A stretch of DNA of 57,331 nt from Candidatus Thorarchaeota archaeon. Lineage in GTDB: Archaea > Asgardarchaeota > Thorarchaeia > Thorarchaeales > Thorarchaeaceae. The position numbers were made by a program, and so were the translations under genes. Of the stretch, positions 7,062-27,024 are shown piece by piece. Numbering within the stretch: the stretch's first letter is position 1; every line of letters starts with the position of its first letter. Location: NCBI GenBank assembly GCA_016840855.1, contig JAEORO010000025.1:1-57331 (forward strand). The letters run 5' to 3'. The notes below the pieces were generated by a model. It was not told the origin of the DNA and did no database searches. It was given only the letters and a program-made list of their open reading frames with translations.

Positions 7062-8237
7062 ATGGTCACTAGAACGAGAAAACCTTCAACTCTTTGTGTT
7101 CAAGGTGAACACTCTCAAACATCAGGACCAGCTGTGGTTCCTATAGTCCAGACCTCCACTTTTGTGTTCGAAAACCAGCAGCAGATGCTCGACTCTGTAC
7201 AGGGCAAGACAGGAAAGGATGTTTACACACGTTGGAGTAACCCAACGACAAAAAATGTAGAGGAAAAAATGAATGCTCTCGAAGGAACAGAAGACACTCA
7301 TGTCCTTGCATCAGGTATGGCTGCCATTTCTTCTGCAATTATAGGCCTTGTGAAGAATGGTGAAAAAATTCTCTCTAGTGATTCAATTTATGGTGGGACT
7401 GTTCATCTCTTCAACAAGATACTGTCCCAAAGTTGCATAGAAGTTGATTATGTGGATACCGACGAACTTGCTGATCGGCTCTCTGATTCCTCATCACCTT
7501 ACAAGCTTTGTTTCTTTGAAACTCCTACTAATCCTACTTTGAAGATTGTTGACATCAAGAAAGTTGCTGACTCGGCTCGAGCAACTGGAACCATTAGTTT
7601 GATAGACAGCACATTTGGATCCCCCATTAATCAGAGACCTCATTCATTGGGCGTCGACCTTGTGATGCATAGTGCAACAAAATACCTCGGTGGTCATAGT
7701 GATATCATTGCTGGAACTATCTCTGGATCGAAAGAATTGATGGCTGATGTTCGCAGCGCTGCGAAGCTTCTTGGAGGGACAATGGATCCTTTTGCTTCTT
7801 TCCTCTTAGATCGAGGACTCAAGACTCTAGGTGTTCGAATGGAGAAACACAACTCGAATGGCAGCTTTCTTGCTGAGAAACTGTCTCGTGACTCACGAGT
7901 TAGGAAAGTTCACTACCCCGGACTTCCAAATCATCCACATCATGACATAGCGAAGAAGCAAATGACAGGCTTTGGAGGCATGCTCTCCATCGAACTTGAG
8001 TCTGATTTGACCGGAACGAGTAAGTTCGTAGACTCATTACGGATTTTCTTGAATGCAGTTTCATTAGGTGGAGTTGAGAGCTTAGCAAGCATTCCTGCAT
8101 TGTCCACACATTATGGCATTGATGAGCGTGTTCTAAATGAGATGGATATATCAAGCTCGACTGTCCGGTTATCTATCGGTATCGAGGATCCTGAAGATTT
8201 ACTAAACGATCTGATGGATGGTTTGGAAGCGATATAA
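7062..8237 (+). CDS. Cys/Met metabolism PLP enzyme (cystathionine gamma-synthase/lyase or methionine gamma-lyase)
   Basis: YTRWSNPT, SGMAAI, ETPTNP, HSATKYLGGHSD (PLP Lys), AVSLGGVESL, RLSIGIE; GGTGA SD before ATG 7062. Confidence 0.92.
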   Translation: MVTRTRKPSTLCVQGEHSQTSGPAVVPIVQTSTFVFENQQQMLDSVQGKTGKDVYTRWSNPTTKNVEEKMNALEGTEDTHVLASGMAAISSAIIGLVKNGEKILSSDSIYGGTVHLFNKILSQSCIEVDYVDTDELADRLSDSSSPYKLCFFETPTNPTLKIVDIKKVADSARATGTISLIDSTFGSPINQRPHSLGVDLVMHSATKYLGGHSDIIAGTISGSKELMADVRSAAKLLGGTMDPFASFLLDRGLKTLGVRMEKHNSNGSFLAEKLSRDSRVRKVHYPGLPNHPHHDIAKKQMTGFGGMLSIELESDLTGTSKFVDSLRIFLNAVSLGGVESLASIPALSTHYGIDERVLNEMDISSSTVRLSIGIEDPEDLLNDLMDGLEAI

Positions 8238-8450
8238 TAGGCAGGTATTACGAGCGCAATATGGCCAATTGTTAAGCAATAGGTTTTCGACTGTTCACTG
8301 CTATCGACTCTACCCATTTGAAATTCACGTTTGTGTGATATTAAAAAAACATACTCCTCTAGAATGAACCTAGAAGGCTATTTGAGGCAATATAGAAATG
8401 GTGAATTTCTTCAGACTGGTTATATTCAGATTTTACAATGAGTTTACTGA

Positions 8451-8807
8451 TTGGGAATGACAGTAAATCAAGAATCAACCTATGCTACGTATAAGATTAA
8501 CAGGACAGAGTGCGGAAGATGCTCATGTATAATTGTCTACTCTAGTCCTCAATGTATTCTATGTGATGCCGCTCTTGAGCTCATGTATAGTGTCATTTCT
8601 GATTTTGGTTTACAGCCTTCTGCGGTTCGAGAAGTAGATATTACTAAAAATGATGATGATGGTTGTGGTCTTCCAGCACCAGTTGGCCTGCCAGCTATAC
8701 GTATCTGTGAGGAATTCATAAGTGGTCTTCCTGACATAGATAGTGCTCGTGGTGCAGTCATGCACGCAGTACTCAAGAACTGCTTCTCTGGCGATGACTG
8801 TTTCTAA
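8451..8807 (+). CDS. Thioredoxin/glutaredoxin-fold protein
   Basis: YSSPQCILC (CxxC), EVDI, cis-Pro motif GLPAI, FISGLP. Confidence 0.7.
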   Translation: MGMTVNQESTYATYKINRTECGRCSCIIVYSSPQCILCDAALELMYSVISDFGLQPSAVREVDITKNDDDGCGLPAPVGLPAIRICEEFISGLPDIDSARGAVMHAVLKNCFSGDDCF

Positions 8808-11145: not shown

Positions 11146-11667
11146 TTAGAGATGTCTGGTCCAGATTGATGCATCATCATTTGGATATAGTGATGGAATA
11201 TTAGCTACTTCTTTGAATCTGTTTGTTTTGTAGAACTTCCGCGCGATTTCATTTGAACGTTCCATGAACAAGATAAGTACTCTCAATGAATAACCACTGT
11301 TTTTGTAAAATTGAGTCGCATCATCAATCATTGTATCAATCAATTGCGTTCCAATGCTCTGTCGTTTGAAGCCTTCATTAACACCCAATCCAATAATTTC
11401 TACAACTCCATCATCGAGACCTCCTCGAGGTTCCCATGACCCGGTTCCACAAATCATTCCGTCTTTAATTGCAAGAACGGTATTATATCTCAAAACTAAA
11501 TCTTTAGCAAACTTCTGAGCACGACCTGAGTGATCCTCTATCTCCTTTCTATACAAATCCTCTAACAGCAAGATGTCTCCAGAGGTAGCAGGTCTGATAT
11601 CTATCATGACAGCTTTGTAAATAATCCCTAGGTCATTTGTATCTGTCGTTCTATTTGGATTACTCAA
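11146..11667 (-). CDS. GNAT-family N-acetyltransferase
   Basis: LGVNEGFKRQSIGTQL motif A; NEIARKFYKTNRF motif B. Confidence 0.85.
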   Translation of the reverse strand: MSNPNRTTDTNDLGIIYKAVMIDIRPATSGDILLLEDLYRKEIEDHSGRAQKFAKDLVLRYNTVLAIKDGMICGTGSWEPRGGLDDGVVEIIGLGVNEGFKRQSIGTQLIDTMIDDATQFYKNSGYSLRVLILFMERSNEIARKFYKTNRFKEVANIPSLYPNDDASIWTRHL

Positions 11668-12439
11668 TGATTACAACAGCATCAACGAATAGCTCGTATT
11701 CCTCATCCTCATCCATATTAAGTATCAATACCTTTTCTACCTCAAACTCTCCACGAACTTCAAGAAGTTTTGATTGATACAATACCTTCACATTTGAACT
11801 CGCCAACCTCTCTGCAAGTTCTGGATTGATGATAAGAGTTTCATCTGGCGTAAGAAGAATCACGCGTTCAGTGACCTCTGTGAGATTAATTGCAGTATCA
11901 ACTGACTCATCGCCAGAATAGAGAACCAGAGTCCTTCGATTCTTGAACTCATCTAGGTCTTCGACACTAAGATAGACACCTTTGTCTAGAAATTCATCTT
12001 TCCCAACGAGACACTCAATTTCAGATTCCACTTTCTCCTTATCATCAGATACTTCTTCCCCTCTACCTTTTCGATAACTCTTGATTGCTTCATGTAGAGC
12101 ATCAGCAGCAAGGTTAGAGCAATGCATCTTGATTGGTGGCAGTCCATCAAGCTCGTCTGCCACATCCTGACGCGTGAGTTTCATAGCCTCATCCAATGTC
12201 ATACCCTTGACCATTTCAGTCGTCATACTTGTGGTGGCAATCGCTGATCCACAACCAAAGGTCCTAAATTTAGCATCAGTTATGGTATCACCATCGATGC
12301 GAATATAGACCTCCATAATATCTCCACAAGTTGGATTTCCAACTTTTCCTACAGCAACATCATCCCCTTCTAAAGTACCGACATTTCTTGGATTGCGGAA
12401 ATGATCAAGAACTTTTTCACTATATTTGGTTGATTTCAT
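11660..12439 (-). CDS. iscU: Fe-S scaffold IscU/NifU fused to a degenerate thioredoxin-reductase NADPH-binding domain
   Basis: YSEKVLDHFRNPRNVG, GNPTCGD, FGCGSAIA, LPPIKMHCSNLA; extra ~120-aa C-terminal domain. Confidence 0.9.
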   Translation of the reverse strand: MKSTKYSEKVLDHFRNPRNVGTLEGDDVAVGKVGNPTCGDIMEVYIRIDGDTITDAKFRTFGCGSAIATTSMTTEMVKGMTLDEAMKLTRQDVADELDGLPPIKMHCSNLAADALHEAIKSYRKGRGEEVSDDKEKVESEIECLVGKDEFLDKGVYLSVEDLDEFKNRRTLVLYSGDESVDTAINLTEVTERVILLTPDETLIINPELAERLASSNVKVLYQSKLLEVRGEFEVEKVLILNMDEDEEYELFVDAVVIIE

Positions 12440-12445
12440 CTTATA

Positions 12446-13615
12446 TCACCCATTCCTGGTTTTATATATTGGAGATAGTTCTCTAAGTCGTGAAACTACT
12501 TTTGGCACGGCTTCAAGTACTATATCAATGTCATCATCTACGTTGAATCTACCTGTTGTCAACTGGAGCGAACCATGTGCCTCCTCATGCAAAAGACCCG
12601 TAGCAATTAGCGTATGGGATGGCTCAAGCGTTTTCGATGTACATGCTGATCCTGTTGACACAGATATTCCTAGATCTTTGAATGATAGTAGAATTGACTC
12701 GCCTTCAATTCCATCAAATCTAAAATGAGCATTGGATGCAAGCCGGTCTGTTGGATGTCCATTAAGATGGCTATCAGGCACTTCCTCAAGGATTTGCTTA
12801 ATCATCCTGTCCCGATATCTCTGGAATCGCTTAACCTCAGTATCCATCTCTTTCTGCATTATTTCAGCTGCAATACGCATGCCGACTATCCCGGGAATAT
12901 CCTCACTGCCTGACCTAAGACCTCTCTCTTGTCCTCCTCCAATGATGATGGGGTTCACTCGAAATTTCTTCTGCATGTACATAACGCCTACTCCTCTGGG
13001 TCCATACAAGTCGTTAGATGAGAGCGCCATGAGATTGATGTTGTCTTTTCTTACATCAATAGGGACAAGTCCTTCACCAGCCACAGCATCTGTATGAAAT
13101 GCGATTCCCTTCTCCGCTGCGAGTTCCCCTATCTCATGAATTGGTTGGATGGTACCAATCTCGTTACTAGCAATTCCTATTGAAATGAGAATTGTTTGAT
13201 CTGTAATGCGACGTTCTAGCTTTTGCAGGTTTACTTTGCCATATTGATCAACAGGAACTTTTGAAACCGAAAATCCTTCTCTCTCAAGATACTTTGCAAT
13301 GTTGTGTATCGAGATGTGTTCTATCTCTGAAATAATTATGTGGTTGCCCTTGTTCTTGTTCCTAAGAGCATAACCGATGATTCCCAAGTTGATTGCTTCT
13401 GTTGCTCCCGAAGTAAAGATAATCTCATCCTCATCAGCGTTTATAAAGTTGGCAATCTTCTTTCTACTCGCCTCTAATGCCTCTGTCGCTACATCTCCTA
13501 CATGATGTAATGAGGATGGATTTCCAAATAACTCGTGAAAATACTTCGTCATTCCTTCAATTACTCTGGAATCAACTGGTTTTGCACTTTGATAATCGAG
13601 ATAGATTTCTTTCAT
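12446..13615 (-). CDS. iscS: Cysteine desulfurase IscS/NifS-like protein (PLP Lys replaced by Asp)
   Basis: IYLDY, FGNPSSLH, FTSGATE, HTDA, GGGQERGLRSG, STGSACTS; SSNDLYGP in place of SxHKxYGP. Confidence 0.92.
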   Translation of the reverse strand: MKEIYLDYQSAKPVDSRVIEGMTKYFHELFGNPSSLHHVGDVATEALEASRKKIANFINADEDEIIFTSGATEAINLGIIGYALRNKNKGNHIIISEIEHISIHNIAKYLEREGFSVSKVPVDQYGKVNLQKLERRITDQTILISIGIASNEIGTIQPIHEIGELAAEKGIAFHTDAVAGEGLVPIDVRKDNINLMALSSNDLYGPRGVGVMYMQKKFRVNPIIIGGGQERGLRSGSEDIPGIVGMRIAAEIMQKEMDTEVKRFQRYRDRMIKQILEEVPDSHLNGHPTDRLASNAHFRFDGIEGESILLSFKDLGISVSTGSACTSKTLEPSHTLIATGLLHEEAHGSLQLTTGRFNVDDDIDIVLEAVPKVVSRLRELSPIYKTRNG

Positions 13616-13633
13616 TTCTCCATCAACCTATTT

Positions 13634-13987
13634 CTAGAACCACATGGTTGCATCTGCTTCTAGGGCAAGGTCATTGAGTGTTGCAGCTCCAACAATCTTT
13701 AGGTCTGGGTCCAATTCTACCTTTTCCCATCCTAGCATTTGTTTGGACGCCTCGCACACATAAATGGGGATACCCATTTCAATCGTCTTCTTCATTATCT
13801 CTTTAAGACTTGGAAAACTACCCAGCTTGATCTTTTCAGCCGCACCCGGTTGAAGGACCCTCAATGCTTGTCCTAAGAAGTAGACTTTTGCATCAATGTC
13901 CATTGCCTTGGCACTCTGTGCTAGCACAAACGGAGAGTATTGACGTTCGGGATCATCTGATGTTTGTACATATAAGATACTACTCAC
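13634..13987 (-). CDS. DsrE/DsrF-like sulfur relay protein
   Basis: PFVLAQSAKAM, VYFLGQAL, IYVCEAS, IVGAATL. Confidence 0.8.
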   Translation of the reverse strand: MSSILYVQTSDDPERQYSPFVLAQSAKAMDIDAKVYFLGQALRVLQPGAAEKIKLGSFPSLKEIMKKTIEMGIPIYVCEASKQMLGWEKVELDPDLKIVGAATLNDLALEADATMWF

Positions 13988-15513: not shown

Positions 15514-17364
15514 TTAGTCCGACATATATGGGTCTTCATCCATGTTGATATCGGCATAACCGACATCTCTCAAGAGATCCTCGATGGACTCAGCACCTGT
15601 TACCCAAGATAACGCCCATCGACCATCTTCTTGTAGATATAGCTCAACATCAGGGAGATCTCCAAGTAAATTGTGGTCCATCTCAATAGCATCTTGATAA
15701 GCACCTGCTAATGCCAATACAAAGCAAGAACCCCTTACATTTTCTAATTCGCCTACAGGAATGCCATCACCCATCAATCCCCCTGGTGTAGTCAGGAGTC
15801 TGTTATCTCTTGTAAACCAAACTTCATCTGTGTTTGGCCTGTAGAACTGAGTTATCTCTCCATCTGAATCACAAGTTATGTCAACTAAGCGGACTGTGGT
15901 CTGAGGTCTTATATGGAGGTCTCTAATTGGAACTACAGGGAAATGTTGCTTCACCAGCACATGATCAGCAACACTGTTGAAGACGCTGAAGTTTCCTATA
16001 ACAATATGTTCAGGATGCCAAAAGCTTCTTACTAATCCTTCAATATCATATGATTTTAGATGGAGCTCAACAAGTCTAGCTCTCACAACATCTTCTAATG
16101 TCCCTGTCAACATCTCTTGTTCCATTATGTACTGCATTCCATTAAGATTCAATCCACTATATTTCTCGTGGTAGCTATTCCATATTTCCTTGATTTCATC
16201 GAGTGTTGACACACTCTCGATTCTTTCAATTGTCTTCTTCTCAAAATCCTCAGCATCTTCAGAAACATATTCTCTTCTATTCTCAGGAAATATTGACCGA
16301 ACCTCTAGAGCCTCAACAATAATCATGGACGCCAGTGCTGTAATTCCTCGGCCTGACTCAATCATTATATTTGGTGGTGGGTGTTGACTGTTGCTTCTAG
16401 ACAGCTGCTCTTCCACGCCAGACACGAGGAGATGAGAGTACTGATACATATAGTCTGAAACATGAGAACTAGTGTAGTCAATCGCTAGTCCGCCACCAAA
16501 ATCAATGTTCGCAAGATTTGACAATCCCATGTTTCTCAGTTCCGTATAGATCTTTGTCAGTAGCCTGCCAAATTTTTCAAAAGATTCTATTTTGGTGATT
16601 TGTGAGCCTGCATGTGCAAGGATCGTTTGGACCGATTTTGCAAATCCCCTTTCTTTCAATAGCTTTACAACATCATATAGGTCGTGAATACTCAGACCGA
16701 ATTTGGAATCTCTCCCAGTGGAATGAGACCAGTGTCCCTCAACATTCAGATATGGCTTGATTCGCAATACTAGATTGGTTTCTTCAGCGTTGAACCGGTC
16801 AATAATCAAGCGAGATTCATGAACTGATTCAATAGAGATTGCTATATTATAGCCCTCATCCATACACTCCTTAATTAACTCCAAATACTCCGGGTCTTTT
16901 GCTCCATTACAGACGATGAGCCTATGCTTCTCGTTTGCAATGACGTTTTTAATTAGAAGTAGTTCTGCTTTTGTTCCAGCCTCCAGACCATATTCAGAAT
17001 CAGACCTAATAACGGCTGTAACACAATCCTTGCGTTGATTGACTTTGACTGGATAGATCCCAATGAACTTCCCTTCAAAGCCAAGTTCACTGATCACTCT
17101 TTGAAATGCGGCCTTAAGTTTCTTAATTTGGTACGTAATCAGCTGTGGTACCCGTAGAGTGAATGAGGATGTATATCCTGATTCGTTTCCATTCATCTCC
17201 TTGATTCTTTGAACAATCTCTCTGAAGGTTATAGTGTGTTCTTGAAGTCGTATACAGAGATCACCTTCCTTTGTGATGTCTAGAAAGTGAAGGTCGTTTT
17301 TATTCACACCATAGACTATTCTTGATTTATCTAATGACCAGTTATCATCTACCACTGCATTCAC
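15514..17364 (-). CDS. speA: Biosynthetic PLP-dependent arginine decarboxylase (bacterial/plant SpeA type)
   Basis: YPVKVNQ (PLP Lys), GLEAGTKAEL, CNGAKD, SKFGL, DFGGGLAIDY, ESGR, NFSVFNS, DITCDSDG, GAYQD, HNLLG. Confidence 0.88.
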   Translation of the reverse strand: MNAVVDDNWSLDKSRIVYGVNKNDLHFLDITKEGDLCIRLQEHTITFREIVQRIKEMNGNESGYTSSFTLRVPQLITYQIKKLKAAFQRVISELGFEGKFIGIYPVKVNQRKDCVTAVIRSDSEYGLEAGTKAELLLIKNVIANEKHRLIVCNGAKDPEYLELIKECMDEGYNIAISIESVHESRLIIDRFNAEETNLVLRIKPYLNVEGHWSHSTGRDSKFGLSIHDLYDVVKLLKERGFAKSVQTILAHAGSQITKIESFEKFGRLLTKIYTELRNMGLSNLANIDFGGGLAIDYTSSHVSDYMYQYSHLLVSGVEEQLSRSNSQHPPPNIMIESGRGITALASMIIVEALEVRSIFPENRREYVSEDAEDFEKKTIERIESVSTLDEIKEIWNSYHEKYSGLNLNGMQYIMEQEMLTGTLEDVVRARLVELHLKSYDIEGLVRSFWHPEHIVIGNFSVFNSVADHVLVKQHFPVVPIRDLHIRPQTTVRLVDITCDSDGEITQFYRPNTDEVWFTRDNRLLTTPGGLMGDGIPVGELENVRGSCFVLALAGAYQDAIEMDHNLLGDLPDVELYLQEDGRWALSWVTGAESIEDLLRDVGYADINMDEDPYMSD

Positions 17365-17387
17365 CCTTGCGCTTTGCTGAGGAGTTA

Positions 17388-18860
17388 CTATTCCTCCTCT
17401 TCACGTATGGAGTCAAGCATTCCTTGGAAAGCTCGAGCGAGCTCGCCAATCTCATCATCTTTCGCAATGTATGTTGCATCTACTTGAAGGTCTCCGGTGC
17501 TAAGCGGTTGGTCTTTTATCCTTGCTGCAACATTTCTCTGTGCGAGATCCATTAGATACTGCAATGGTCTTGTAATAGTATTTGAGATGGCAACCGCGAC
17601 AATTCCTGCTACTAGGATACCTCCTATGGTCACAATGATGATGTAGGTTGCTGCTTCTGCATTCTGTTCTATGATTCTCGCTTCAAGACGTGGAATACTC
17701 TCTAAGACCTCATCCAAAGGCACTGAGATTACACAGATGTAACCACCTTTTCCGACCTGCGTGAACACTAGGATTCTTTCATCTCCACCTCGTGTATATC
17801 GCAATGTTCCTGAAGTCCCTTCAGGTACGCTTGTGATTTGGTCAATATTAGCTTGAGTCAATGCTGGTGAGAAATCAGGGTTCACTTCCACATTGAGAAG
17901 ATTTGGCACTCCACTTATGTACTCGTCATCTTCAACCTCTGGGTGTGCAACTACTCCACCATAAGAATCCAAGAGAAATGCGTATCCAGTTTCAAGGATT
18001 TCCACATTGATGATTTTGTCTTTGATGTCTTCTATGGTGATATCACCAGAGATGACTGCAAAAGGAATGCTATTTCGATACACCACTTTTCCTATCGATA
18101 TCAATAGCACACCATCAAACTCATCATAATATGGCTCGACAAATACCATGTCGCCATTTCCATCCCAGATCGTTTGATACCAATATTCTCCTCTTGGATC
18201 GTATGGATCAGCTAACCTTGCCGCATCTGAAATTGGTCCCAGTATGCTACCAGGATAGTTTATGAAGAGTCCATCATCAGCAAACGCAATATAGAGCCAT
18301 CTAAAGGCTAATTGGTTGTGTATTGCTCTAAAAATGTAGTCGATATTTGATACGCGCCCCAGATTGTCAGCGTTTGCAGGAATATCCGCGTAGCTGGAAT
18401 TGTAGTTTGTAGAATCGGTGTTTGCTATATACCAGCTGCTGTATTCCCATGAAACATGAAGGCCATAGTTGGGATCATAGTGATTGTCAGCTGGTGCTGG
18501 AGATACAGAGTCATCTTCAAACAGGAGGTCGTAATACACTTCTCGATATTCATAGGTTGAACTTGGATCAAATAGTGCTTCTAATTCCTCTGCAGCAGCG
18601 GCAATCATTCCTTCTGCACTAGCTAATTTTTGGTTTATCACCAGTGCTGTCTTTTGTGCTGTTTCAACCATGTTTGTTTGAATCTGATTCTCGAGGGCAA
18701 TGGAGCTTTGGTCGCTTGTTGAATTGCCTATTAGGTTCACAAAAGTCAAAGATACAACCCCTGTAACAGCTAGGGAAAGCAGTGAAATTGTTAGAAAGGT
18801 GATAATTACATTAGTTCGGAATTTGCCTTTCTTTCTGGTTTGTGTAGTTGATTGTACCAT
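17388..18860 (-). CDS. Transmembrane dCache_1-HAMP sensor lacking an output domain
   Basis: TM1; YDPRGEYWY...EPYYD...SGDI; GYAFLLDSYGGVVAHP; TM2; HAMP ITRPL...DDEIGELARAFQGMLDSI, then stop. Confidence 0.85.
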   Translation of the reverse strand: MVQSTTQTRKKGKFRTNVIITFLTISLLSLAVTGVVSLTFVNLIGNSTSDQSSIALENQIQTNMVETAQKTALVINQKLASAEGMIAAAAEELEALFDPSSTYEYREVYYDLLFEDDSVSPAPADNHYDPNYGLHVSWEYSSWYIANTDSTNYNSSYADIPANADNLGRVSNIDYIFRAIHNQLAFRWLYIAFADDGLFINYPGSILGPISDAARLADPYDPRGEYWYQTIWDGNGDMVFVEPYYDEFDGVLLISIGKVVYRNSIPFAVISGDITIEDIKDKIINVEILETGYAFLLDSYGGVVAHPEVEDDEYISGVPNLLNVEVNPDFSPALTQANIDQITSVPEGTSGTLRYTRGGDERILVFTQVGKGGYICVISVPLDEVLESIPRLEARIIEQNAEAATYIIIVTIGGILVAGIVAVAISNTITRPLQYLMDLAQRNVAARIKDQPLSTGDLQVDATYIAKDDEIGELARAFQGMLDSIREEEE

Positions 18861-18873
18861 CCCTTTTCACCTC

Positions 18874-21747
18874 CTAGTAGTCAACGGTTGATCCTCCAAT
18901 TTCCATTTGTGCCATCAAGACTCCCACCTTTTCAAACGCTTTCTCAATCTCTAACCTTACGTTTATAGTGTCTACAACAGAGAAATACTGTCCTTGAGGA
19001 ACTCTCTCACATATTGATTCTAGTAACTCTTCTGTCGTGATTGCTTGCCCCGTTTCCTTTGAGATTATTCTTCTATCCGTATCCGCACGATTTCTAAGCT
19101 CTTGTCCAACTCCAATTATTAGCAGATTGACGTCTAGATGATGATCTCGAATAAAGCCCTCGATAGTAAGTGGTTTCTTTCTCTTCATTCTATCCTCTTC
19201 TGTGAGGATTCCCTCCAAAACATCTAATGAGTACGTTTTAGAGCTGTTATCCTGTCCATCAGTTAGAGCAATCACCCACCTATGTTCACTGGACTCTATT
19301 TTCTCAAGTTCTTCAAGTGCTCTTCCAAGAGCATCGTAGAAGGCTGTAGCATAATTTGGATATTTCAGGGAATTCAAAGTCCTAACTATTTTGTTCTCAT
19401 CATCTTCGCGCTCACCCTTTATTGTTAGAGGGAGAAGTTCTCTATATGATGAGTTGAAAACTATCACAGATACTGCATCTTGAGGATTCACCTGACTATG
19501 GAGAATCTCTAATGCACCATTAACTGCAGCTCTAATTCTATTCTGAGCCTGCATGCTGCCTGAGTAGTCAATCACGAATGTTACACTTTTCTTGAACATT
19601 ATAGAGCGTCTTAGTTTCTCTGCTTTCCTCCGAACATCATGACTAGGTTTGTTCTGCTGATCAAGAACATCACCAAGTCGTTGCATTGCGAATACAACCA
19701 GCCAAAGCTCATCTGTTTGCTGGCCATAAGAGATTGCCTCATTATAGGAATCTTCTGCTTTCTTCCATTTTGTTTGGACTTGATGTAGCTCTCCTTTGTG
19801 ATAGTGGATGTAAGCTAGACTTCTCAAGTAGTCTATTTTCTCAGCGATTTCCTTGGCTTCATCATACCTTGATTGAGCTTGACTGTACCGACCATCACGC
19901 ATCATGACAAGACCCATAGCATCATATCGTCTAGCAAGACCATATTGATTCTGAATAGTCCGGTCAATAGCTTCAGCATCCTCTAATAGCTTTAGTGATT
20001 TATCAGTATGACCTCTATCCATCTCAACCAGAGCCATGTTATGATAGAGCGAAGCAATTCTGATGAGCGCATCTTTCTCATCTGCTCCGTTCTCTTTTGC
20101 TTTTTCGAGTAGGTTATTTGCAATAATCATGGATTGTTCATAATAGTCCATTGCATTTCCTACATCTCCGCGTTGCCTGAACACATTTCCTATGTTCTGA
20201 AGCATTGTCTGCTGGCCAACATCAATCTGAAGTCTGCGACTGATTTCCAAAAGGTTCTGATAGTTCGCTAATGCTCTATTGAGGTCTCCTCTAATAAATG
20301 CCTGATTGCCGAATCTTGCAGCTTCTTGGAAACTAAGAAGTGCATCTACTGTGGTTCCGACTTCCTCATATAACGCCCCTGAAGTCGTTATTCCTCGCGT
20401 GAAATCTTGTCGAGCCATCTTGTTCACAAGGCGCGTCATCTCCGTAATTGGTTCAATTACAGATTGGGCTCTACGATACGACACAAGAGTAACAACTCCT
20501 GCAACAATTGCTAAAACAGCTCCCAGAGCTATAGTGAGTATCAGTGTCTGAGTTCCCACAAGATTAAGCATTGCTACTGCAGGCGCTATCACATCAGAAT
20601 CCGGAACTACCACAGCTAGCACATAGTCTGTGTTTGTAACATTTACGAAAGCCATGTGCCAAGTTTGTCCCCCTTTCTGAAATTCTTCTAGTCCCGAGTC
20701 TTCTACTAGAACTGATGAGCTCAATAGATTTCCAAATGCTACTGCCTCTGGACTTGTCATGCTACCGAACTCGAGCTCCTCAATCGGAAGCGGCTCATCA
20801 AATATTCCTAATTGAGGATGTGCAACAACGACTCCATCGCGATCAAGTAAGAATGAGTATCCATTCTCCAAGACCTCGAGATTCAACACATTCTCATTGA
20901 TTGTTAACATTGTAACATCTGCTGACACTACACCAATTAGCGTTCCATTATCATACCTGACTGGTCGTCCCATCGATATTACAAGTCCAACCGAAGGATC
21001 GATATATGGCTCCGTGAATACTATGCTGTTATCACTCGGATTTTGTGTAGCTACATTTGTGTACCAATCCTCTGCATTCGGGTCGTAATCTTCTGTTGGT
21101 AGTACTGGGTTTCCATCGTCGTCCTGTTGGAAATAAATGAGGTCATCAAATGGGTAATTTCTGAATAAGTGTTGGTTGGAAATTCCTAAATCAAATCCCA
21201 TGTATAACCATCTATAGTCTTCATTCATCTCATGAAGAGCTCTAAAGATGTTGACCATATTGGATGAAACGTCCAAAGCATACTGCGTTCCAGGAGATAG
21301 GTCATGAGGATCATCGTTATTCCATGCAAACCTTGGCATGTAATAGCAATCAGTTTCAAATGTGATATAATATGAAAAATACGCCTCTGTAATCTCCGGA
21401 TCTGTTTCAAAAGTCAAGTCCCCCCAATTAGGCTCCTCTGTTGAATCCCAGTAATAGCTATATCGAGGTGTTGCGTTGACTCTCTCATTGAATAGATCTT
21501 CGCAGTAAGCCTCCATCATATAGACTCCATCGACATAATTCTGCCATCTTTCTTCAATGAAAACGCCAGTGTCATTCGAAAGCCTGACTAAGTTCGCTAA
21601 CTCTTCAGCTTTCAACTCCTCCGCAGCATCAGCAGCATTAGCATTAGAAACATCATTGATAGCTATTATCGATAATGAAGAAATCACAAGAATCGGTATC
21701 AATGCTACAACGACAAACGTGACTACAATTCGCTTTGAGATGTTCAT
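18874..21747 (-). CDS. Transmembrane dCache_1-HAMP-TPR-vWA receptor
   Basis: TM1, dCache (YDPNAEDWY, EPYIDP, GYSFLLDRDGVVVAHP), TM2, HAMP (IEPITEM...EEVG), TPR array (NIGNVFRQRGD..AMDYYEQS), vWA with MIDAS IDYSGSM / TAFYDAL / LTDGQDN. Confidence 0.85.
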   Translation of the reverse strand: MNISKRIVVTFVVVALIPILVISSLSIIAINDVSNANAADAAEELKAEELANLVRLSNDTGVFIEERWQNYVDGVYMMEAYCEDLFNERVNATPRYSYYWDSTEEPNWGDLTFETDPEITEAYFSYYITFETDCYYMPRFAWNNDDPHDLSPGTQYALDVSSNMVNIFRALHEMNEDYRWLYMGFDLGISNQHLFRNYPFDDLIYFQQDDDGNPVLPTEDYDPNAEDWYTNVATQNPSDNSIVFTEPYIDPSVGLVISMGRPVRYDNGTLIGVVSADVTMLTINENVLNLEVLENGYSFLLDRDGVVVAHPQLGIFDEPLPIEELEFGSMTSPEAVAFGNLLSSSVLVEDSGLEEFQKGGQTWHMAFVNVTNTDYVLAVVVPDSDVIAPAVAMLNLVGTQTLILTIALGAVLAIVAGVVTLVSYRRAQSVIEPITEMTRLVNKMARQDFTRGITTSGALYEEVGTTVDALLSFQEAARFGNQAFIRGDLNRALANYQNLLEISRRLQIDVGQQTMLQNIGNVFRQRGDVGNAMDYYEQSMIIANNLLEKAKENGADEKDALIRIASLYHNMALVEMDRGHTDKSLKLLEDAEAIDRTIQNQYGLARRYDAMGLVMMRDGRYSQAQSRYDEAKEIAEKIDYLRSLAYIHYHKGELHQVQTKWKKAEDSYNEAISYGQQTDELWLVVFAMQRLGDVLDQQNKPSHDVRRKAEKLRRSIMFKKSVTFVIDYSGSMQAQNRIRAAVNGALEILHSQVNPQDAVSVIVFNSSYRELLPLTIKGEREDDENKIVRTLNSLKYPNYATAFYDALGRALEELEKIESSEHRWVIALTDGQDNSSKTYSLDVLEGILTEEDRMKRKKPLTIEGFIRDHHLDVNLLIIGVGQELRNRADTDRRIISKETGQAITTEELLESICERVPQGQYFSVVDTINVRLEIEKAFEKVGVLMAQMEIGGSTVDY

Positions 21748-21806
21748 TTGCTCTCCACCACTATTTTACTAATCTTCAGAATCAATGATTTCATCCTCAA
21801 TTGTCT

Positions 21807-23246
21807 TTATCCACTCCAAGTGCCCAGTTCATCTAGAAGCTTTCTTTCGAAATCATTGAGGTCTTGTTTCTTTTCGAGTGTGAACTCATCGTCAGACAAT
21901 GAGCCTTGAATTGCTCCCTCACCAAGTAGGATGATAAGGGTACGCCGCAATATTCTTCGATTTACTCCGGTTTCTTGTTCTAGATGACGAATGTCCAATG
22001 TATCAGTTCCACGGAGAAGGTTTCGAAGAGTTCCTTTCACTTTTTGGATGTCGTGTTTTGAAGGTGCTGGAATCTTCTTCTTGGGCTCTGTTCTTACAAA
22101 TGTGTTACCATCAATGTGTCCCTCGATTACATCACTCTGAATCATAGCTTGAAGGCTACGACGTAAATTGTATGCTGCTGGTCTAGGAAGCGTTCTTCTA
22201 AGAATTCTATCAAGTTCCTTGAGTTTTATCCTGTTGTGTTTAGATGTAATCGAATCAATGCTTTCTTGGATATACTCCTCTAGGATATACTCCTCAATCA
22301 TTTCCAATTGAGCTCCGCAAGACGTACAGGTTGACGCTTCTGGTGTTGTTGGTGCACCACAATTCCCACATTTTATCGCTCTTCTGTATAGAACTGTCTT
22401 TGTCGAACCAATCTGCTGTAGAATTACTTTCTCAGTCCTTGTTACCTTTCCTGACTCTTGGACTTCCCAAAAGCTAAGCTTATGGTTTTTTGTACTAACT
22501 ACAAGAAAGGCGACATCTGAAATGTCATCGGGGATCCCGGTAGCCATTGCTCTGGGAATGTCTTCAACATCAAGTCGGGCAATCTCATTCCCATCGATGT
22601 CCCAAATCCGCAGTGTTGAAGAATGGTCCCCGGTAATGAACAAAATTCGATCACTGAATGAAAGAACCGCAAAGACTGAAAGACCTGGACCTAATTGCAG
22701 TTCTTTTAGTTGGTAGCCAGCTGCAGTGAGGACTGTAACCAAACCACTCATTTCAGCTACGACTACTTCCAATTCAGTGTCCTTTGTTATGTCTTCAAGC
22801 CAAACGTCAGCGATAGGGTCTCTCATTGTTCTCGTGAAAATTGTATCCTTGTCATCATTGTATAGTATAACTCGGTTGTTTTCTAATGCAACAACTACCT
22901 CTGCTGCATCATCTCCGTCGATATCACGTGCATCACATGCAACAATATTACTCTCTAGTCTAATGTTCCAAACTGGACTTCCTCTGTGGTCTACAACAAG
23001 GACTTTTTTTCCTACTCCTCCCACAAGAGCATCTTTTCCTTCTCCTTCGATATCAGCTACTGCAATGCATCTGACCTTACTGCTCCACTTTCTAGCACTG
23101 CGAAGAATTCCCTTTGCATCAAAGACTCTGAGCTGGTCACCGTAATCTAGTGAAAAGATTTGAGTGCTGGCATCCTTTCTCTGTCTCACGTACACAGAGT
23201 ACACATTCGCAGAAGTCAACACATTTGCAACTGAGCGAATCTTCAA
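21807..23246 (-). CDS. FG-GAP-type beta-propeller + zinc ribbon + tandem PCI-like winged helices
   Basis: ADIEGEGKD, DIDGDDAAE and DITKDTELE loops; CGNCG-x9-CTSCG; LQAMIQSDVIEGHIDG and LLGEGAIQGSLSD. Confidence 0.7.
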   Translation of the reverse strand: MKIRSVANVLTSANVYSVYVRQRKDASTQIFSLDYGDQLRVFDAKGILRSARKWSSKVRCIAVADIEGEGKDALVGGVGKKVLVVDHRGSPVWNIRLESNIVACDARDIDGDDAAEVVVALENNRVILYNDDKDTIFTRTMRDPIADVWLEDITKDTELEVVVAEMSGLVTVLTAAGYQLKELQLGPGLSVFAVLSFSDRILFITGDHSSTLRIWDIDGNEIARLDVEDIPRAMATGIPDDISDVAFLVVSTKNHKLSFWEVQESGKVTRTEKVILQQIGSTKTVLYRRAIKCGNCGAPTTPEASTCTSCGAQLEMIEEYILEEYIQESIDSITSKHNRIKLKELDRILRRTLPRPAAYNLRRSLQAMIQSDVIEGHIDGNTFVRTEPKKKIPAPSKHDIQKVKGTLRNLLRGTDTLDIRHLEQETGVNRRILRRTLIILLGEGAIQGSLSDDEFTLEKKQDLNDFERKLLDELGTWSG

Positions 23247-25548: not shown

Positions 25549-27024
25549 ATGCCACAGGGTGCTGAAAAACGGGTTCAGAAGAACAAATCAGATAAATCTA
25601 GCAAGAGAAACTCGTTCTTCGATCCCTCGGCAAACAAGACAATTTTGAAAATCATCCTTGACAATGCACATGAGGGTATTGTTATTGTTGGTGATGATTA
25701 TATTCTAGAGTATATCAACGAACCGGGTGCGACAATTTTTGGTGGCAAAATTAAAGATCTAATTGGTTATGACTTCCGTCAATTTTTGCGAGATGATATG
25801 GTAAAGATCGTTGCAGAAAGATATGAACGCAGACGGAGAGGTGAAGAGGTCCCAGAGGTATACCCATTCACTATTATTCGAAAAGATGGAGTGGAAATCA
25901 TTCTCGAAGGACGAGTAGAAATATTCCAGACAACTGACGGTAAGATCAAAACCATTGCTCATTTTCTTGACATAACTCAGCTCCTTAAAAATAGGGATGC
26001 TCTTGAAGAGTCTGAAACAAGGTATAAGTTACTAGTTGAAACTATGAATGATGGTCTCGCAATTGATGATGAATCCGGTAACTTGGTTTACGCCAACGAA
26101 GCTTTTTGTCGAATGCTCGGATATGAATCCTCTGAAATACTTGGTAAAAGATGGACAGATTTCACAGAGGAAATGACTGTAGACGAATTCAACAAAAAAA
26201 TGTCTGAGCGAAAATCTGGAGTTACAGACAGCTATGAACTGAATTGGGTCAGTAAAACTGGAGAAATTATCCCAACTATTATTTCCGCTACTCCATATTT
26301 CGACCGTTCTGGTAAGTTCATTGGTACTTTTGCAGTAATCACTCAAATCTCATCTCAGAAAGAAGCAGAAGAAACTGTCCAGTTCTATCTAGATTTACTC
26401 GGTCATGACATCACTAACCAACTCCAAGTGATCATGACTAGTACTGGACTTCTTGAAGAAGAAGTACCTCCATCTTACATCGTTGATGCAAGAAAGGACA
26501 TTCTTGATGCCGTGGAGCGATGCAATCGGCTCATTACTAAAGTGAAACGTGCTGCTCAAATTCGGTACATTCCACTCTCCCGGATTGATGCGATTCCTAT
26601 TCTAAAGGAGAAAATCAAAGTTTTAGAACGAGTTTATGGAGCCCAAGTGCATGTCCAAGGATTGAAAAAGAATCTCATAGTTGAAGCTGATGTTTTACTA
26701 GGTGAGATGCTCTGGAATCTATTGGAGAATGCAGCTCGTCACAATCCAAAAGAAAGGAAGCAAGTCTGGATTGAATGCGAAGAAAAAGCTGACTCTTATA
26801 ACATAATGATATCTGATGATGGACCCGGTCTCAGTGATTTAAGAAAAAGCACTCTGTTCAAAGAGCGAAAACATGGCGGTGGCGTAGGAATAGCTCTAGT
26901 ATCACAAATGATACGGAAATATGGTGGATCGATTGAAGTTCAAGATAGAGTAGATGGTAAACCTGCTCTGGGTTCAAAATTCATTGTAACTCTTAAAAAA
27001 GCAAAATCTAGAAAGAAGAGATAG
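25549..27024 (+). CDS. Soluble PAS-PAS sensor histidine kinase
   Basis: Two PAS domains; H-box LLGHDITNQL; N-box NLLENAARH; DDGPG; GGGVGIALV. Confidence 0.9.
   Translation: MPQGAEKRVQKNKSDKSSKRNSFFDPSANKTILKIILDNAHEGIVIVGDDYILEYINEPGATIFGGKIKDLIGYDFRQFLRDDMVKIVAERYERRRRGEEVPEVYPFTIIRKDGVEIILEGRVEIFQTTDGKIKTIAHFLDITQLLKNRDALEESETRYKLLVETMNDGLAIDDESGNLVYANEAFCRMLGYESSEILGKRWTDFTEEMTVDEFNKKMSERKSGVTDSYELNWVSKTGEIIPTIISATPYFDRSGKFIGTFAVITQISSQKEAEETVQFYLDLLGHDITNQLQVIMTSTGLLEEEVPPSYIVDARKDILDAVERCNRLITKVKRAAQIRYIPLSRIDAIPILKEKIKVLERVYGAQVHVQGLKKNLIVEADVLLGEMLWNLLENAARHNPKERKQVWIECEEKADSYNIMISDDGPGLSDLRKSTLFKERKHGGGVGIALVSQMIRKYGGSIEVQDRVDGKPALGSKFIVTLKKAKSRKKR

Follow-up and report, generated by a model that had tools for sequence, protein, structure and literature searches.

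A kinase-free dCache-HAMP receptor ending in TPR and vWA domains, encoded with a propeller protein and a predicted arginine decarboxylase in Asgard archaea

We analysed a 57,331-nucleotide (nt) stretch of contig JAEORO010000025.1 from a Candidatus Thorarchaeota archaeon (assembly GCA_016840855.1), referred to here as the window, and in it a cluster of four genes that we label A (479 amino acids, aa), B (957 aa), C (490 aa) and D (616 aa). B encodes a predicted two-pass receptor in which an outside dCache_1 sensor and a HAMP domain lead to a cytoplasmic tetratricopeptide repeat (TPR) array and a von Willebrand factor A (vWA) domain. C is an output-less paralogue of the sensor half of B, A is a propeller protein, and D is a predicted SpeA-type, pyridoxal phosphate (PLP)-dependent arginine decarboxylase (ADC). 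A, B and C very probably form one functional module. The reading that we prefer for the whole, in which a mixed B/C amine sensor would signal through the TPR-vWA platform to A and would be tied to agmatine supply, has a probability that falls just short of even.

The genes are co-oriented in the order A-B-C-D (Table 1), with gaps of 59, 13 and 23 nt between A and B, B and C, and C and D. A first-pass annotation of the same DNA had reported this arrangement, and our list of open reading frames (ORFs) reproduces it exactly. The cluster is not a product of chance, as all four genes are kept in tens of genomes. Families of the phylum are given here as f numbers (f1 is the window's own family and f22 the Loki-type one), genomes as G numbers and loci as L numbers; G000 is the window's genome, with a completeness of 92%, and A and B are single-copy in it. 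Proteins at least 85% identical to B and A come from Candidatus Thorarchaeota metagenome-assembled genomes, where the source annotations read "cache domain-containing protein", "tetratricopeptide repeat protein", "hypothetical protein", "zinc ribbon domain-containing protein" or "WD40 repeat protein".

From its N-terminus, B is composed of a first transmembrane (TM) segment (residues 7-30), the outside dCache_1 domain (~40-390), a second TM segment (396-425), HAMP (~426-478), the TPR array (~480-716), the vWA domain (722-~900) and a conserved C-terminal tail. Pfam assigns dCache_1, TPR_12 and VWA_2 at E 6.3e-15, 2.1e-16 and 9.1e-15, both TM segments come from a hydropathy scan, and the predicted topology is the usual one, with the sensor outside and HAMP inside. 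No kinase, methyl-accepting chemotaxis protein (MCP), cyclase or phosphatase family was found by Pfam at E<=0.1 in A, B or C, and NCBIfam kinase and MCP matches span only dCache, HAMP or TPR stretches and lie far below their cut-offs. The earlier description of a receptor without a histidine kinase, MCP, cyclase or phosphatase output thus stands. So does the HAMP domain that it placed in the 957-aa protein, although Pfam makes no HAMP call in B itself: residues 390-485 align with the part of C that Pfam does assign to HAMP (hhalign probability 98.2%, E 2.9e-14), and two short relatives, P0273 and L094:6054-7790, have direct Pfam HAMP matches at the equivalent place (E 1.5e-7 and 1.4e-7).

The vWA domain was also said to have an intact metal ion-dependent adhesion site (MIDAS; DxSxS, T, D), and the residues are indeed present: 21 of 21 orthologues, the most distant at 26% identity, have D727-x-S729-x-S731, T801 and D830 without variation, and the same columns are invariant in our alignment A2. 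By sequence, the closest solved vWA domain is CMG2 (E 0.006) and no integrin, and the nearest solved sequences to the TPR array are designed TPRs and the TPRs of LGN/Pins. Among solved sequences, PctA, PctB and PctC together with the Methanosarcina dCache kinase 3LIB/3LI8 come nearest to both sensor domains, that of B and that of C (E 1.3e-9 to 1e-7). A Protein Atlas search with residues 430-957 of B gave no usable match. We also considered an identity with the Bat (BatA/B/C) vWA-TPR proteins and rejected it; only the TPR of BatC matched, at E 0.0035 and 16.8 bits against a cut-off of 175. Five relatives (P0319, P0321, P0324, P0338 and P0355) are long forms of 1,520-1,640 aa with an N-terminal extension of 600-700 aa, and in the two that were scanned (P0319 and P0338) the extension contains no Pfam family at E<=1e-5.

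C resembles the N-terminal half of B, of which it is a paralogue (28% identity over residues 6-423). It comprises a first TM segment (17-45), dCache_1 (Pfam E 3.7e-13), a second TM segment (401-430) and HAMP (425-487; Pfam E 4.9e-8), and it ends there, as expected for the output-less co-receptor that had been proposed. Its sensor matches 3LIB and 3LI8 at E 2.1e-7 and 4.5e-8. B and C are a candidate heteromer, and the chances for and against such a pairing appear evenly balanced. A longer C is seen in f14, a family without A (665 aa at L041 293-2290; at least 583 aa at L042 9110-10860), and the C-terminal extension, judged by eye, resembles HEAT-type repeats.

In the product of A, a six-bladed beta-propeller (residues 1-264) is followed by a helix (270-286) and a Zn ribbon (~290-315), then by two winged helices (319-385 and 397-457) and a helix at the C-terminus. 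The AlphaFold model, made from a 28-row alignment, has a predicted local distance difference test (pLDDT) value of 84 and a predicted template modelling (pTM) score of 0.80, with 24 strands that make up the six blades. A is a predicted cytoplasmic protein that has no hydrophobic N-terminus, signal or TM segment, in line with its original description as a signal-less propeller. On Pfam it matches Beta-prop_CGLA (30.2 bits, cut-off 26.8) and Zn_Ribbon_1 (E 1e-4), and its Foldseek matches are all generic propellers (NHL, G-beta and BBSome chains) with similar scores. Two more specific labels from the first-pass annotation had to be given up. The FG-GAP assignment fails on score, with FG-GAP_3 at E 0.044 and 14.8 bits against a cut-off of 26.9, and on the six-bladed model. 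A PCI adaptor is likewise not supported, with Pfam PCI at E 0.085 and 13.5 bits against a cut-off of 22, and with a C-terminal half made of the Zn ribbon and two plain winged helices, each after one helix, without helical repeats.

A separate model of residues 265-479 of A (pLDDT 83) had no Foldseek match at E<=0.001. Fold searching by a method other than Foldseek gave a flat list of winged helices at Z 6-8, which included Stn1, kleisin, cullin WHB, ORC/Cdc6, ESCRT-II, UFL1/DDRGK1, PCI-type domains and bacterial regulators; PCI winged helices, at Z 5.8-6.8, were level with many of the others. The Arg-rich winged helices and the Zn ribbon would suit nucleic-acid binding, and the fold searches tie DNA-binding and scaffold types.

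We surveyed 400 genomes of the phylum with profile cut-offs of E<=1e-10 for B, E<=1e-60 for SpeA and E<=1e-25 for A. B is present in 168 of the 400, including 71 of the 85 genomes of f1, and full-length matches of 30-42% identity are found in f8, f10, f11, f13, f14 and f21. We then compared 21 loci, namely the window and 20 fetched loci, spread over eight families. The B-C tandem occurs at every one of the 21, and likewise at further loci of the wider scan where the contig permits, with SpeA adjacent at 16 and A adjacent at 14. Family f11 has these four genes clustered too, with order and strands changed: SpeA is divergent from B, across spacers of 177-283 nt, and A is convergent with C. This points to selection on proximity rather than to inherited order. 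The synteny survey thus bears out, across several Asgard families, the co-conservation on which the cluster had been proposed to rest.

The family was found only in archaeal records, nearly all of them Asgard, with eight or more GTDB families represented. Among 1.84 billion representatives, which carry no taxonomy, a profile search recovered many full-length, single-stretch relatives of 850-950 aa as well as long forms and short HAMP-TPR-vWA forms. Scanning 185,579 species genomes with a single peptide pattern gave 37 stretches, of which 24 were confirmed, all 24 in archaeal records. Their submitter labels are mostly Heimdall-, Hod- or Thorarchaeota or "uncultured archaeon", with one Bathyarchaeia and one Methanobacteriota. 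The Bathyarchaeia-labelled locus (L079) has a B-C-SpeA row closest to the f13 type, and the Methanobacteriota-labelled one (L089) has a divergent B-C pair; the labels may come from misassigned bins, or the genes may have been transferred out of Asgard. The family is likely restricted to Asgard, with the proviso that so narrow a one-pattern scan does not prove absence from bacteria.

The most constant part of the module is the pair formed by the output half of B and the propeller protein. A was detected in 68/85 genomes of f1, 5/22 of f11, 1/1 of f20, 7/14 of f21, 17/135 of f22 and 2/4 of f23, and a profile check in five genomes gave the same trend. Of the 93 genomes in which the places of both A and a B-type gene are known, 91 have them less than 2 kb apart, the other two having them on different contigs and none having them distant on one contig. 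The sensor end and the tail of A vary between families (alignment A1), and the propeller is the sole part of A kept in every family that has it, the profile matches in f11, f21, f22 and f23 spanning only residues ~1-300. The B-type gene of f22 encodes 578 aa, in which HAMP (Pfam E 1.4e-7), TPR and vWA come after a short N-terminal membrane part; there is no dCache domain and no C gene. The f22 genes, read at two loci from two genera (L094 5302-10238; L095 4224-9110), form a four-gene row: a 241-250-aa protein with no Pfam match, the 578-aa HAMP-TPR-vWA protein, a membrane protein of 148-150 aa, and a propeller of 606-609 aa that has a Zn ribbon at its C-terminus. Since f22 keeps both HAMP-TPR-vWA and propeller without dCache and C, these two are the constant pair. 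Nothing else supports so strongly the central idea of the first-pass annotation, communication between the TPR/vWA end and the propeller protein.

Co-folding of B residues 470-957 with full-length A, for which custom alignments were supplied, gave a score of 0.60 (runs of 0.60, 0.00 and 0.62) against 0.00 for the best of three controls, with the verdict "weak support". The mark used is reached by 58 of 80 solved complexes and by 2 of 110 mismatched pairs, and scores of 0.60 or less occur in only 7 of the 80 solved complexes and in both of the mismatches that pass. Contact agreement between the runs was at least 0% and partner pLDDT at least 79, and no interface was returned. The link that had been proposed between the vWA/TPR end and the propeller is therefore upheld by gene context, even where dCache and co-receptor are missing, and weakly by co-folding. 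Given the gene context, co-folding offers modest support for binding and is silent on the contact site. Taking both together, we lean towards the view that A binds the cytoplasmic end of B.

A further observation concerns loss of the module. In G386 (L055, G386:C7, ~7985-8454), only residues 29-68 of A and 349-489 of C are left between a histone deacetylase (HDAC)-family gene and SpeA. This remnant is the product of one deletion that runs from inside A to inside C and removes all of B. SpeA lies directly beside the HDAC-family gene, with no A-B-C, in G312 and G315 also. Such block loss fits A-B-C as one functional unit that is useful to SpeA yet dispensable for it.

For D, Pfam reports Orn_Arg_deC_N at E 2.9e-23 and 83 bits against a cut-off of 23.4, in keeping with a PLP decarboxylase. 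Its three best matches among solved proteins are the SpeA enzymes of C. jejuni, E. coli and Vibrio (E 3.8e-60 to 2.8e-50), and D aligns with the C. jejuni protein over residues 30-605. Scores on the NCBIfam models for biosynthetic ADC are 359.1 bits for NF003763 (cut-off 369) and 353.7 for TIGR01273 (cut-off 624.1). D is thus predicted to be a PLP-dependent ADC of the SpeA type. No pyruvoyl ADC was found in G000, which makes SpeA the sole ADC detected there; arginase/agmatinase-family genes are present in that genome, away from the cluster. Pyruvoyl ADC (PF01862) is absent from G000 and G315, both Thor-type, and present in G138, G142, G201 and G250, which belong to f21/f22 and are without SpeA, so that within this set of six, either ADC type seems to exclude the other. 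In f21/f22 the pyruvoyl ADC gene is far from the module. One f8 genome without B has two tandem SpeA copies (L056, G015:C1, 6649-11375), the first in an 886-aa frame that may include an extra C-terminal domain.

SpeA was detected in 75/85 genomes of f1, 4/31 of f8, 6/12 of f10, 4/22 of f11, 1/2 of f12, 11/12 of f13 and 6/19 of f14. The places of both SpeA and B are known in 87 genomes. They share a contig in 71, and in 69 of those 71 they lie within 1.8 kb of each other, so that the association with the decarboxylase gene seen in the window is a strong one. The two exceptions are G109, with a distance of 6 kb, and G368, with a distance of 180 kb and a B that has an internal stop. In the remaining 16 genomes, B and SpeA are on separate, mostly short contigs.

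The sensor domains offer a candidate reason for this association. The accessible part of PMC8915833 places the dCache_1AA motif in the membrane-distal module and writes it as YxxxxRxWY followed by Y[x27-34]D. The portion of PMC10589655 available to us adds that the motif Arg, R126 of PctA, makes a hydrogen bond to the ligand's carboxyl group, and that the dCache_1AM amine motif is known from one archaeal phylum only, the Halobacteriota, with 3LIB/3LI8 as the archaeal example. B and C match the amino-acid motif everywhere except at the carboxylate-binding Arg, and the full dCache_1AA motif is thus absent from both. In B (Y221-Y229), Glu226 stands for Arg, and W228, Y229 and Y248, followed by 28 residues and D277, are kept. 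In C (Y220-Y228), Glu225 stands for Arg, and W227, Y228 and then Y, 28 residues and D are kept. Neither B nor C keeps the Arg at any of 21 SpeA-adjacent loci, the position being E, D, Q, S or an aromatic residue. The Arg is kept in B and C of f21, in L072 B, at several short-contig loci and in the distant-family consensus, and L046, L047 and L072 (B) have it without SpeA alongside. The Heimdall-labelled genome G065 carries two B-C pairs on contig G065:C1, L038 at 2.28 Mb and L072 at 1.74 Mb. The L038 pair, with SpeA and A beside it, carries Glu in place of the Arg, and the L072 pair, which includes the second B of G065, is alone and its B keeps Arg.

A quick maximum-likelihood tree of 32 B proteins, midpoint-drawn and with two long branches flagged, has at least four changes of Arg state and at least two of SpeA linkage. 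L072 and L073 contrast with L048, L049 and L075 within a clade of 100% support in the Shimodaira-Hasegawa-like approximate likelihood ratio test (SH-aLRT). Because the tree has only four and two state changes, we attach no statistics to the correlation between Arg loss and SpeA linkage. With the carboxylate-binding Arg lost, the ligand would likely be an amino compound in decarboxylated form (agmatine, putrescine or a related polyamine). Agmatine is arginine minus its carboxylate. The correlation points to a carboxylate-free amine as the cue of the SpeA-linked receptors. To name agmatine, a polyamine or a similar amine as the actual ligand in SpeA-linked lineages is a tentative assignment, if anything on the doubtful side.

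We propose the following mechanism, of which we infer the heteromer, the ligand class, the docking of A, the direction of SpeA control and the downstream role of A. B and C would make a mixed two-pass receptor, with dCache_1 outside and HAMP inside, whose pockets would hold an amino group and, with Glu in place of Arg, could accept agmatine, putrescine or a related polyamine. HAMP would relay the signal to the cytoplasmic TPR array and MIDAS vWA of B, which may serve as a switchable docking platform for A, and transfer would occur by protein binding rather than through a kinase, cyclase or methyl-accepting domain. Where SpeA is the ADC, the module may be wired to the SpeA gene and adjust agmatine production to what is supplied from outside. 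SpeA could also be held directly, by way of its conserved acidic tail. From the first-pass annotation, this proposal retains the kinase-free receptor, the TPR/vWA-propeller link and the polyamine connection, and drops the analogies to an integrin head and to PCI; its eukaryote-style scaffold signalling has the standing of an analogy.

Several observations weigh against this proposal. SpeA is absent from f21 (0/14) and f22 (0/135) at the profile cut-off, where B-C-A exists. A is absent from f8 (0/31), f10 (0/12), f13 (0/12) and f14 (0/19) despite the presence of B-C-SpeA, and because of these four families A cannot be the sole route to SpeA. SpeA remains where A-B-C has been lost. At the Arg position, B of f13 and f14 has an aromatic residue, not an acidic one, and two Arg-less receptors, at L050 and L089, have no adjacent SpeA. 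The correlation of Arg loss with SpeA linkage appears real but amounts to about two independent contrasts. Finally, one of the three co-fold runs scored 0.00, with no interface returned.

Much of this would also fit a general amino-acid-type nutrient receptor and its adaptor, with SpeA merely sharing the operon or promoter region through co-expression or hitch-hiking. The wider family and f21 retain the full Arg-containing amino-acid motif, B-C-A exists in f21, f22 and f23 without any SpeA, the decarboxylase gene outlives the rest, and SpeA linkage changed about twice on the B tree. However, adjacency in 69 of 71 genomes, in six families and two gene orders, is beyond what drift would keep, and Arg loss tracks SpeA linkage, including within the well-supported clade that separates L072 and L073 from L048, L049 and L075. 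We regard a nutrient receptor as unlikely, though it is the alternative that survives best.

TPR domains often bind short acidic C-terminal peptides. SpeA ends in such a tail, with a short D-P-Y-hydrophobic motif, and either the TPR array or the MIDAS of B may use this tail as a docking peptide. B may thus hold, release or gate the enzyme directly, with A as an accessory output. The B-C-SpeA rows without A in f8, f10, f13 and f14 agree with this, as does conservation of the tail in f1, f8, f10 and f13 and its loss in G312, G315, G015, G016 and G105, all without B. The accessible part of PMC7159879, moreover, describes the vWA MIDAS as binding an extended peptide. Against direct docking, the tail is retained in G388, G389, G334 and the second SpeA copy of G333, where there is no B nearby or in the genome, and the linked SpeA of f11 carries a different conserved tail. 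Direct docking of the enzyme is distinctly unlikely on this balance.

As the synthase gene adjoins receptors with outward-facing dCache domains, by topology, and a pocket that would fit a carboxylate-free amine, SpeA and B/C could instead be a signal maker and its receptor. Agmatine made by SpeA would be released and sensed outside as an autocrine or density cue, comparable to the paired synthase and receptor genes of bacterial quorum sensing. We consider this improbable, given that SpeA is the only ADC detected in G000, and hence a housekeeping enzyme, and that no conserved exporter is found among the neighbours of the cluster.

The first-pass annotation compared the locus to the integrin alpha/beta head, with the vWA domain docked on an FG-GAP propeller and a eukaryote-style relay through a PCI scaffold. 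A propeller protein paired with a MIDAS vWA is indeed a shared feature, the two genes are strictly linked with weak co-fold support, and A has a weak resemblance to BBS2/BBS7-type, FG-GAP-like propellers. Blade number, location and family scores all differ, however: the propeller has six blades rather than seven, FG-GAP_3 and PCI are under their cut-offs, both partners are cytoplasmic, no interface was returned, the C-terminal winged helices lack PCI helical repeats, and the nearest solved vWA is CMG2. The integrin comparison does not hold up, and an architecture of this type is very improbable. A conflict or defence system of the MoxR-vWA ternary kind, in which vWA, TPR and propeller domains recur according to the available part of PMC7159879, is hardly credible, since no AAA+ MoxR or effector occurs among the 10 neighbours scanned or the conserved neighbour clusters and the module is single-copy, with stable synteny beside a housekeeping enzyme across families.

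The MoxR-vWA pairs (CoxD/E and the ternary systems) are nonetheless one of several known systems to which the preferred receptor-propeller model can be compared. They share with B a cytoplasmic vWA with a full MIDAS, thought in the accessible text of PMC7159879 to seize a partner peptide. They differ in that no MoxR ATPase is linked here and that the vWA is the tail of a transmembrane HAMP receptor.

To our knowledge, dCache-HAMP proteins are the commonest prokaryotic outside sensors, and all described ones end in an enzyme or chemotaxis domain. The sensor half of B, as judged from its sequence, appears to be an ordinary example, whereas the output half appears new, non-enzymatic and with an obligatory partner. 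The dCache_1-HAMP chemoreceptors and kinases (PctA, PctB, PctC; 3LIB/3LI8) have the same two-pass topology, with dCache_1 outside and HAMP inside, and most of the amino-acid motif, but not the TPR-vWA output of B, the missing output of C or the Glu for the carboxylate-binding Arg.

The alpha2delta proteins and CACHD1, like B, join dCache_1 to vWA, and theirs is the only other such published combination that we found. All eukaryotic dCache_1 proteins are said to carry vWA in the accessible part of PMC8915833. CACHD1 and alpha2delta-1 are weak matches to our dCache domains (E 6.6e-7 and ~0.006). Their vWA lies inside the dCache domain and is extracellular, whereas that of B is cytoplasmic, follows TM-HAMP-TPR and has no special sequence likeness to alpha2delta.

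The BBSome and KICSTOR (BBS2, BBS7 and ITFG2 together with TPR proteins) provide another parallel, in that A is weakly like BBS2/BBS7 propellers and its partner has TPRs. Beta-prop_BBS7 and BBS2_Mid score 18.7 and 18.5 bits on A against cut-offs of 27 (E 1e-3 to 2e-3). In Foldseek, BBSome chains come 2nd and 27th and KICSTOR chains 45th and 47th, with NHL and G-beta propellers scoring alike. The nearest Atlas clusters beyond A's own are Asgard BBS2/BBS7-labelled proteins (0.87 and 0.85), which are leads only, and a preprint (10.64898/2026.10.28.762692) lists, in its accessible part, one Asgard-eukaryote cluster "BBS7/ITFG2". With A six-bladed and generic propellers scoring equally, the likeness to BBS and ITFG2 proteins is a lead only.

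Sensing of outside polyamines is known in bacteria, where dCache domains or periplasmic binders feed HAMP-containing membrane proteins, as in McpU and NspS-MbaA. Those systems end in MCP or GGDEF-EAL domains and are not known to be encoded beside the biosynthetic decarboxylase. We found no published description of a dCache-HAMP-TPR-vWA receptor, of a propeller partner or of a SpeA link, and the supplements of PMC8915833 (Datasets S1-S3), PMC10589655 (Dataset S2) and the preprint 10.64898/2026.10.28.762692 may list such proteins.

Around the cluster, the gene upstream of A is an HDAC-family gene (Pfam E 1.6e-71) separated from it by a 66-nt spacer. It is kept beside the cluster in f1 and still adjoins SpeA where A-B-C is absent (L055, L065 and L066), and because it stays next to SpeA after loss of A-B-C we do not count it in the module. 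It received no NCBIfam assignment, and may or may not be an acetylpolyamine amidohydrolase. A PAS-HATPase sensor kinase gene also lies upstream of the cluster (25549-27024); in f1 loci it keeps its position close to the HDAC-family gene whether A-B-C is present or not. A row of DsrE, cysteine desulfurase and NifU-like genes lies downstream (11660-13987). Our survey of the neighbours of the loci revealed no further conserved polyamine genes, and no conserved neighbour clusters beyond A, B/C, SpeA and the neighbours that are specific to f1. Neighbourhoods in f13 contain a second, LysA/ODC-like PLP decarboxylase, and the survey otherwise listed a PP-loop ATPase, an M24 peptidase and a methyltransferase.

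The intergenic DNA, inspected by eye only, has a TATA-like TTATAT ~43 nt upstream of the start of A and a Shine-Dalgarno-like GGTGGAG ahead of B, and no long T run was seen within the cluster. A 250-nt contig from a marine-sediment metatranscriptome library is identical, with zero mismatches, to window positions 22760-23009 inside A, and could be RNA or carried-over DNA. This was the single match among the contigs of four RNA-library runs; it covers no gene junction and says nothing either way on transcription or co-transcription.

Table 1. Positions in the window of the four genes, their domains and motifs, and the adjacent HDAC-family gene
Feature	Position	Strand	Basis or remark
Gene A, 479 aa	21807..23246	-	ORF, TTG start
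Propeller of A	22455..23246	-	Residues 1-264; alignment A1
Gene B, 957 aa	18874..21747	-	ORF
Pocket motif of B	21061..21087	-	Y221-Y229, Glu226 for Arg
HAMP of B	20314..20472	-	hhalign against HAMP region of C
TPR array of B	19600..20310	-	Pfam TPR_12, TPR_2, TPR_MalT
vWA of B	19048..19584	-	Pfam VWA_2 and VWA; holds MIDAS
Gene C, 490 aa	17388..18860	-	ORF
Gene D (predicted SpeA type), 616 aa	15514..17364	-	ORF, GTG start
Acidic C-terminal tail of SpeA	15517..15540	-	Candidate docking peptide
Hist_deacetyl-family neighbour, 359 aa	23313..24392	+	Pfam; divergent from A

Scaffold-based signalling is the rule in eukaryotes. If the docking model is true, the receptor described here would add an extra kind of signal output to those of prokaryotes, and would do so in the lineage closest to eukaryotes. 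One could go further and see HAMP-TPR-vWA with its obligatory BBS2/BBS7-like propeller as an Asgard-wide form of scaffold-docking signalling continuous with that of eukaryotes, either as an ancestor of BBSome/KICSTOR-type adaptors or as the source of the dCache-vWA combination of alpha2delta/CACHD1, now ascribed to bacterial transfer. We mention this as a long shot.

Agmatine is needed in archaea for polyamines, for hypusine and for the agmatidine of tRNA-Ile. Because of this need, control of the only ADC would matter for growth. The SpeA link also supplies a ligand hypothesis that is cheap and testable, and the dCache-less Loki-type variant suggests that the module could be studied in cultured Asgard relatives.

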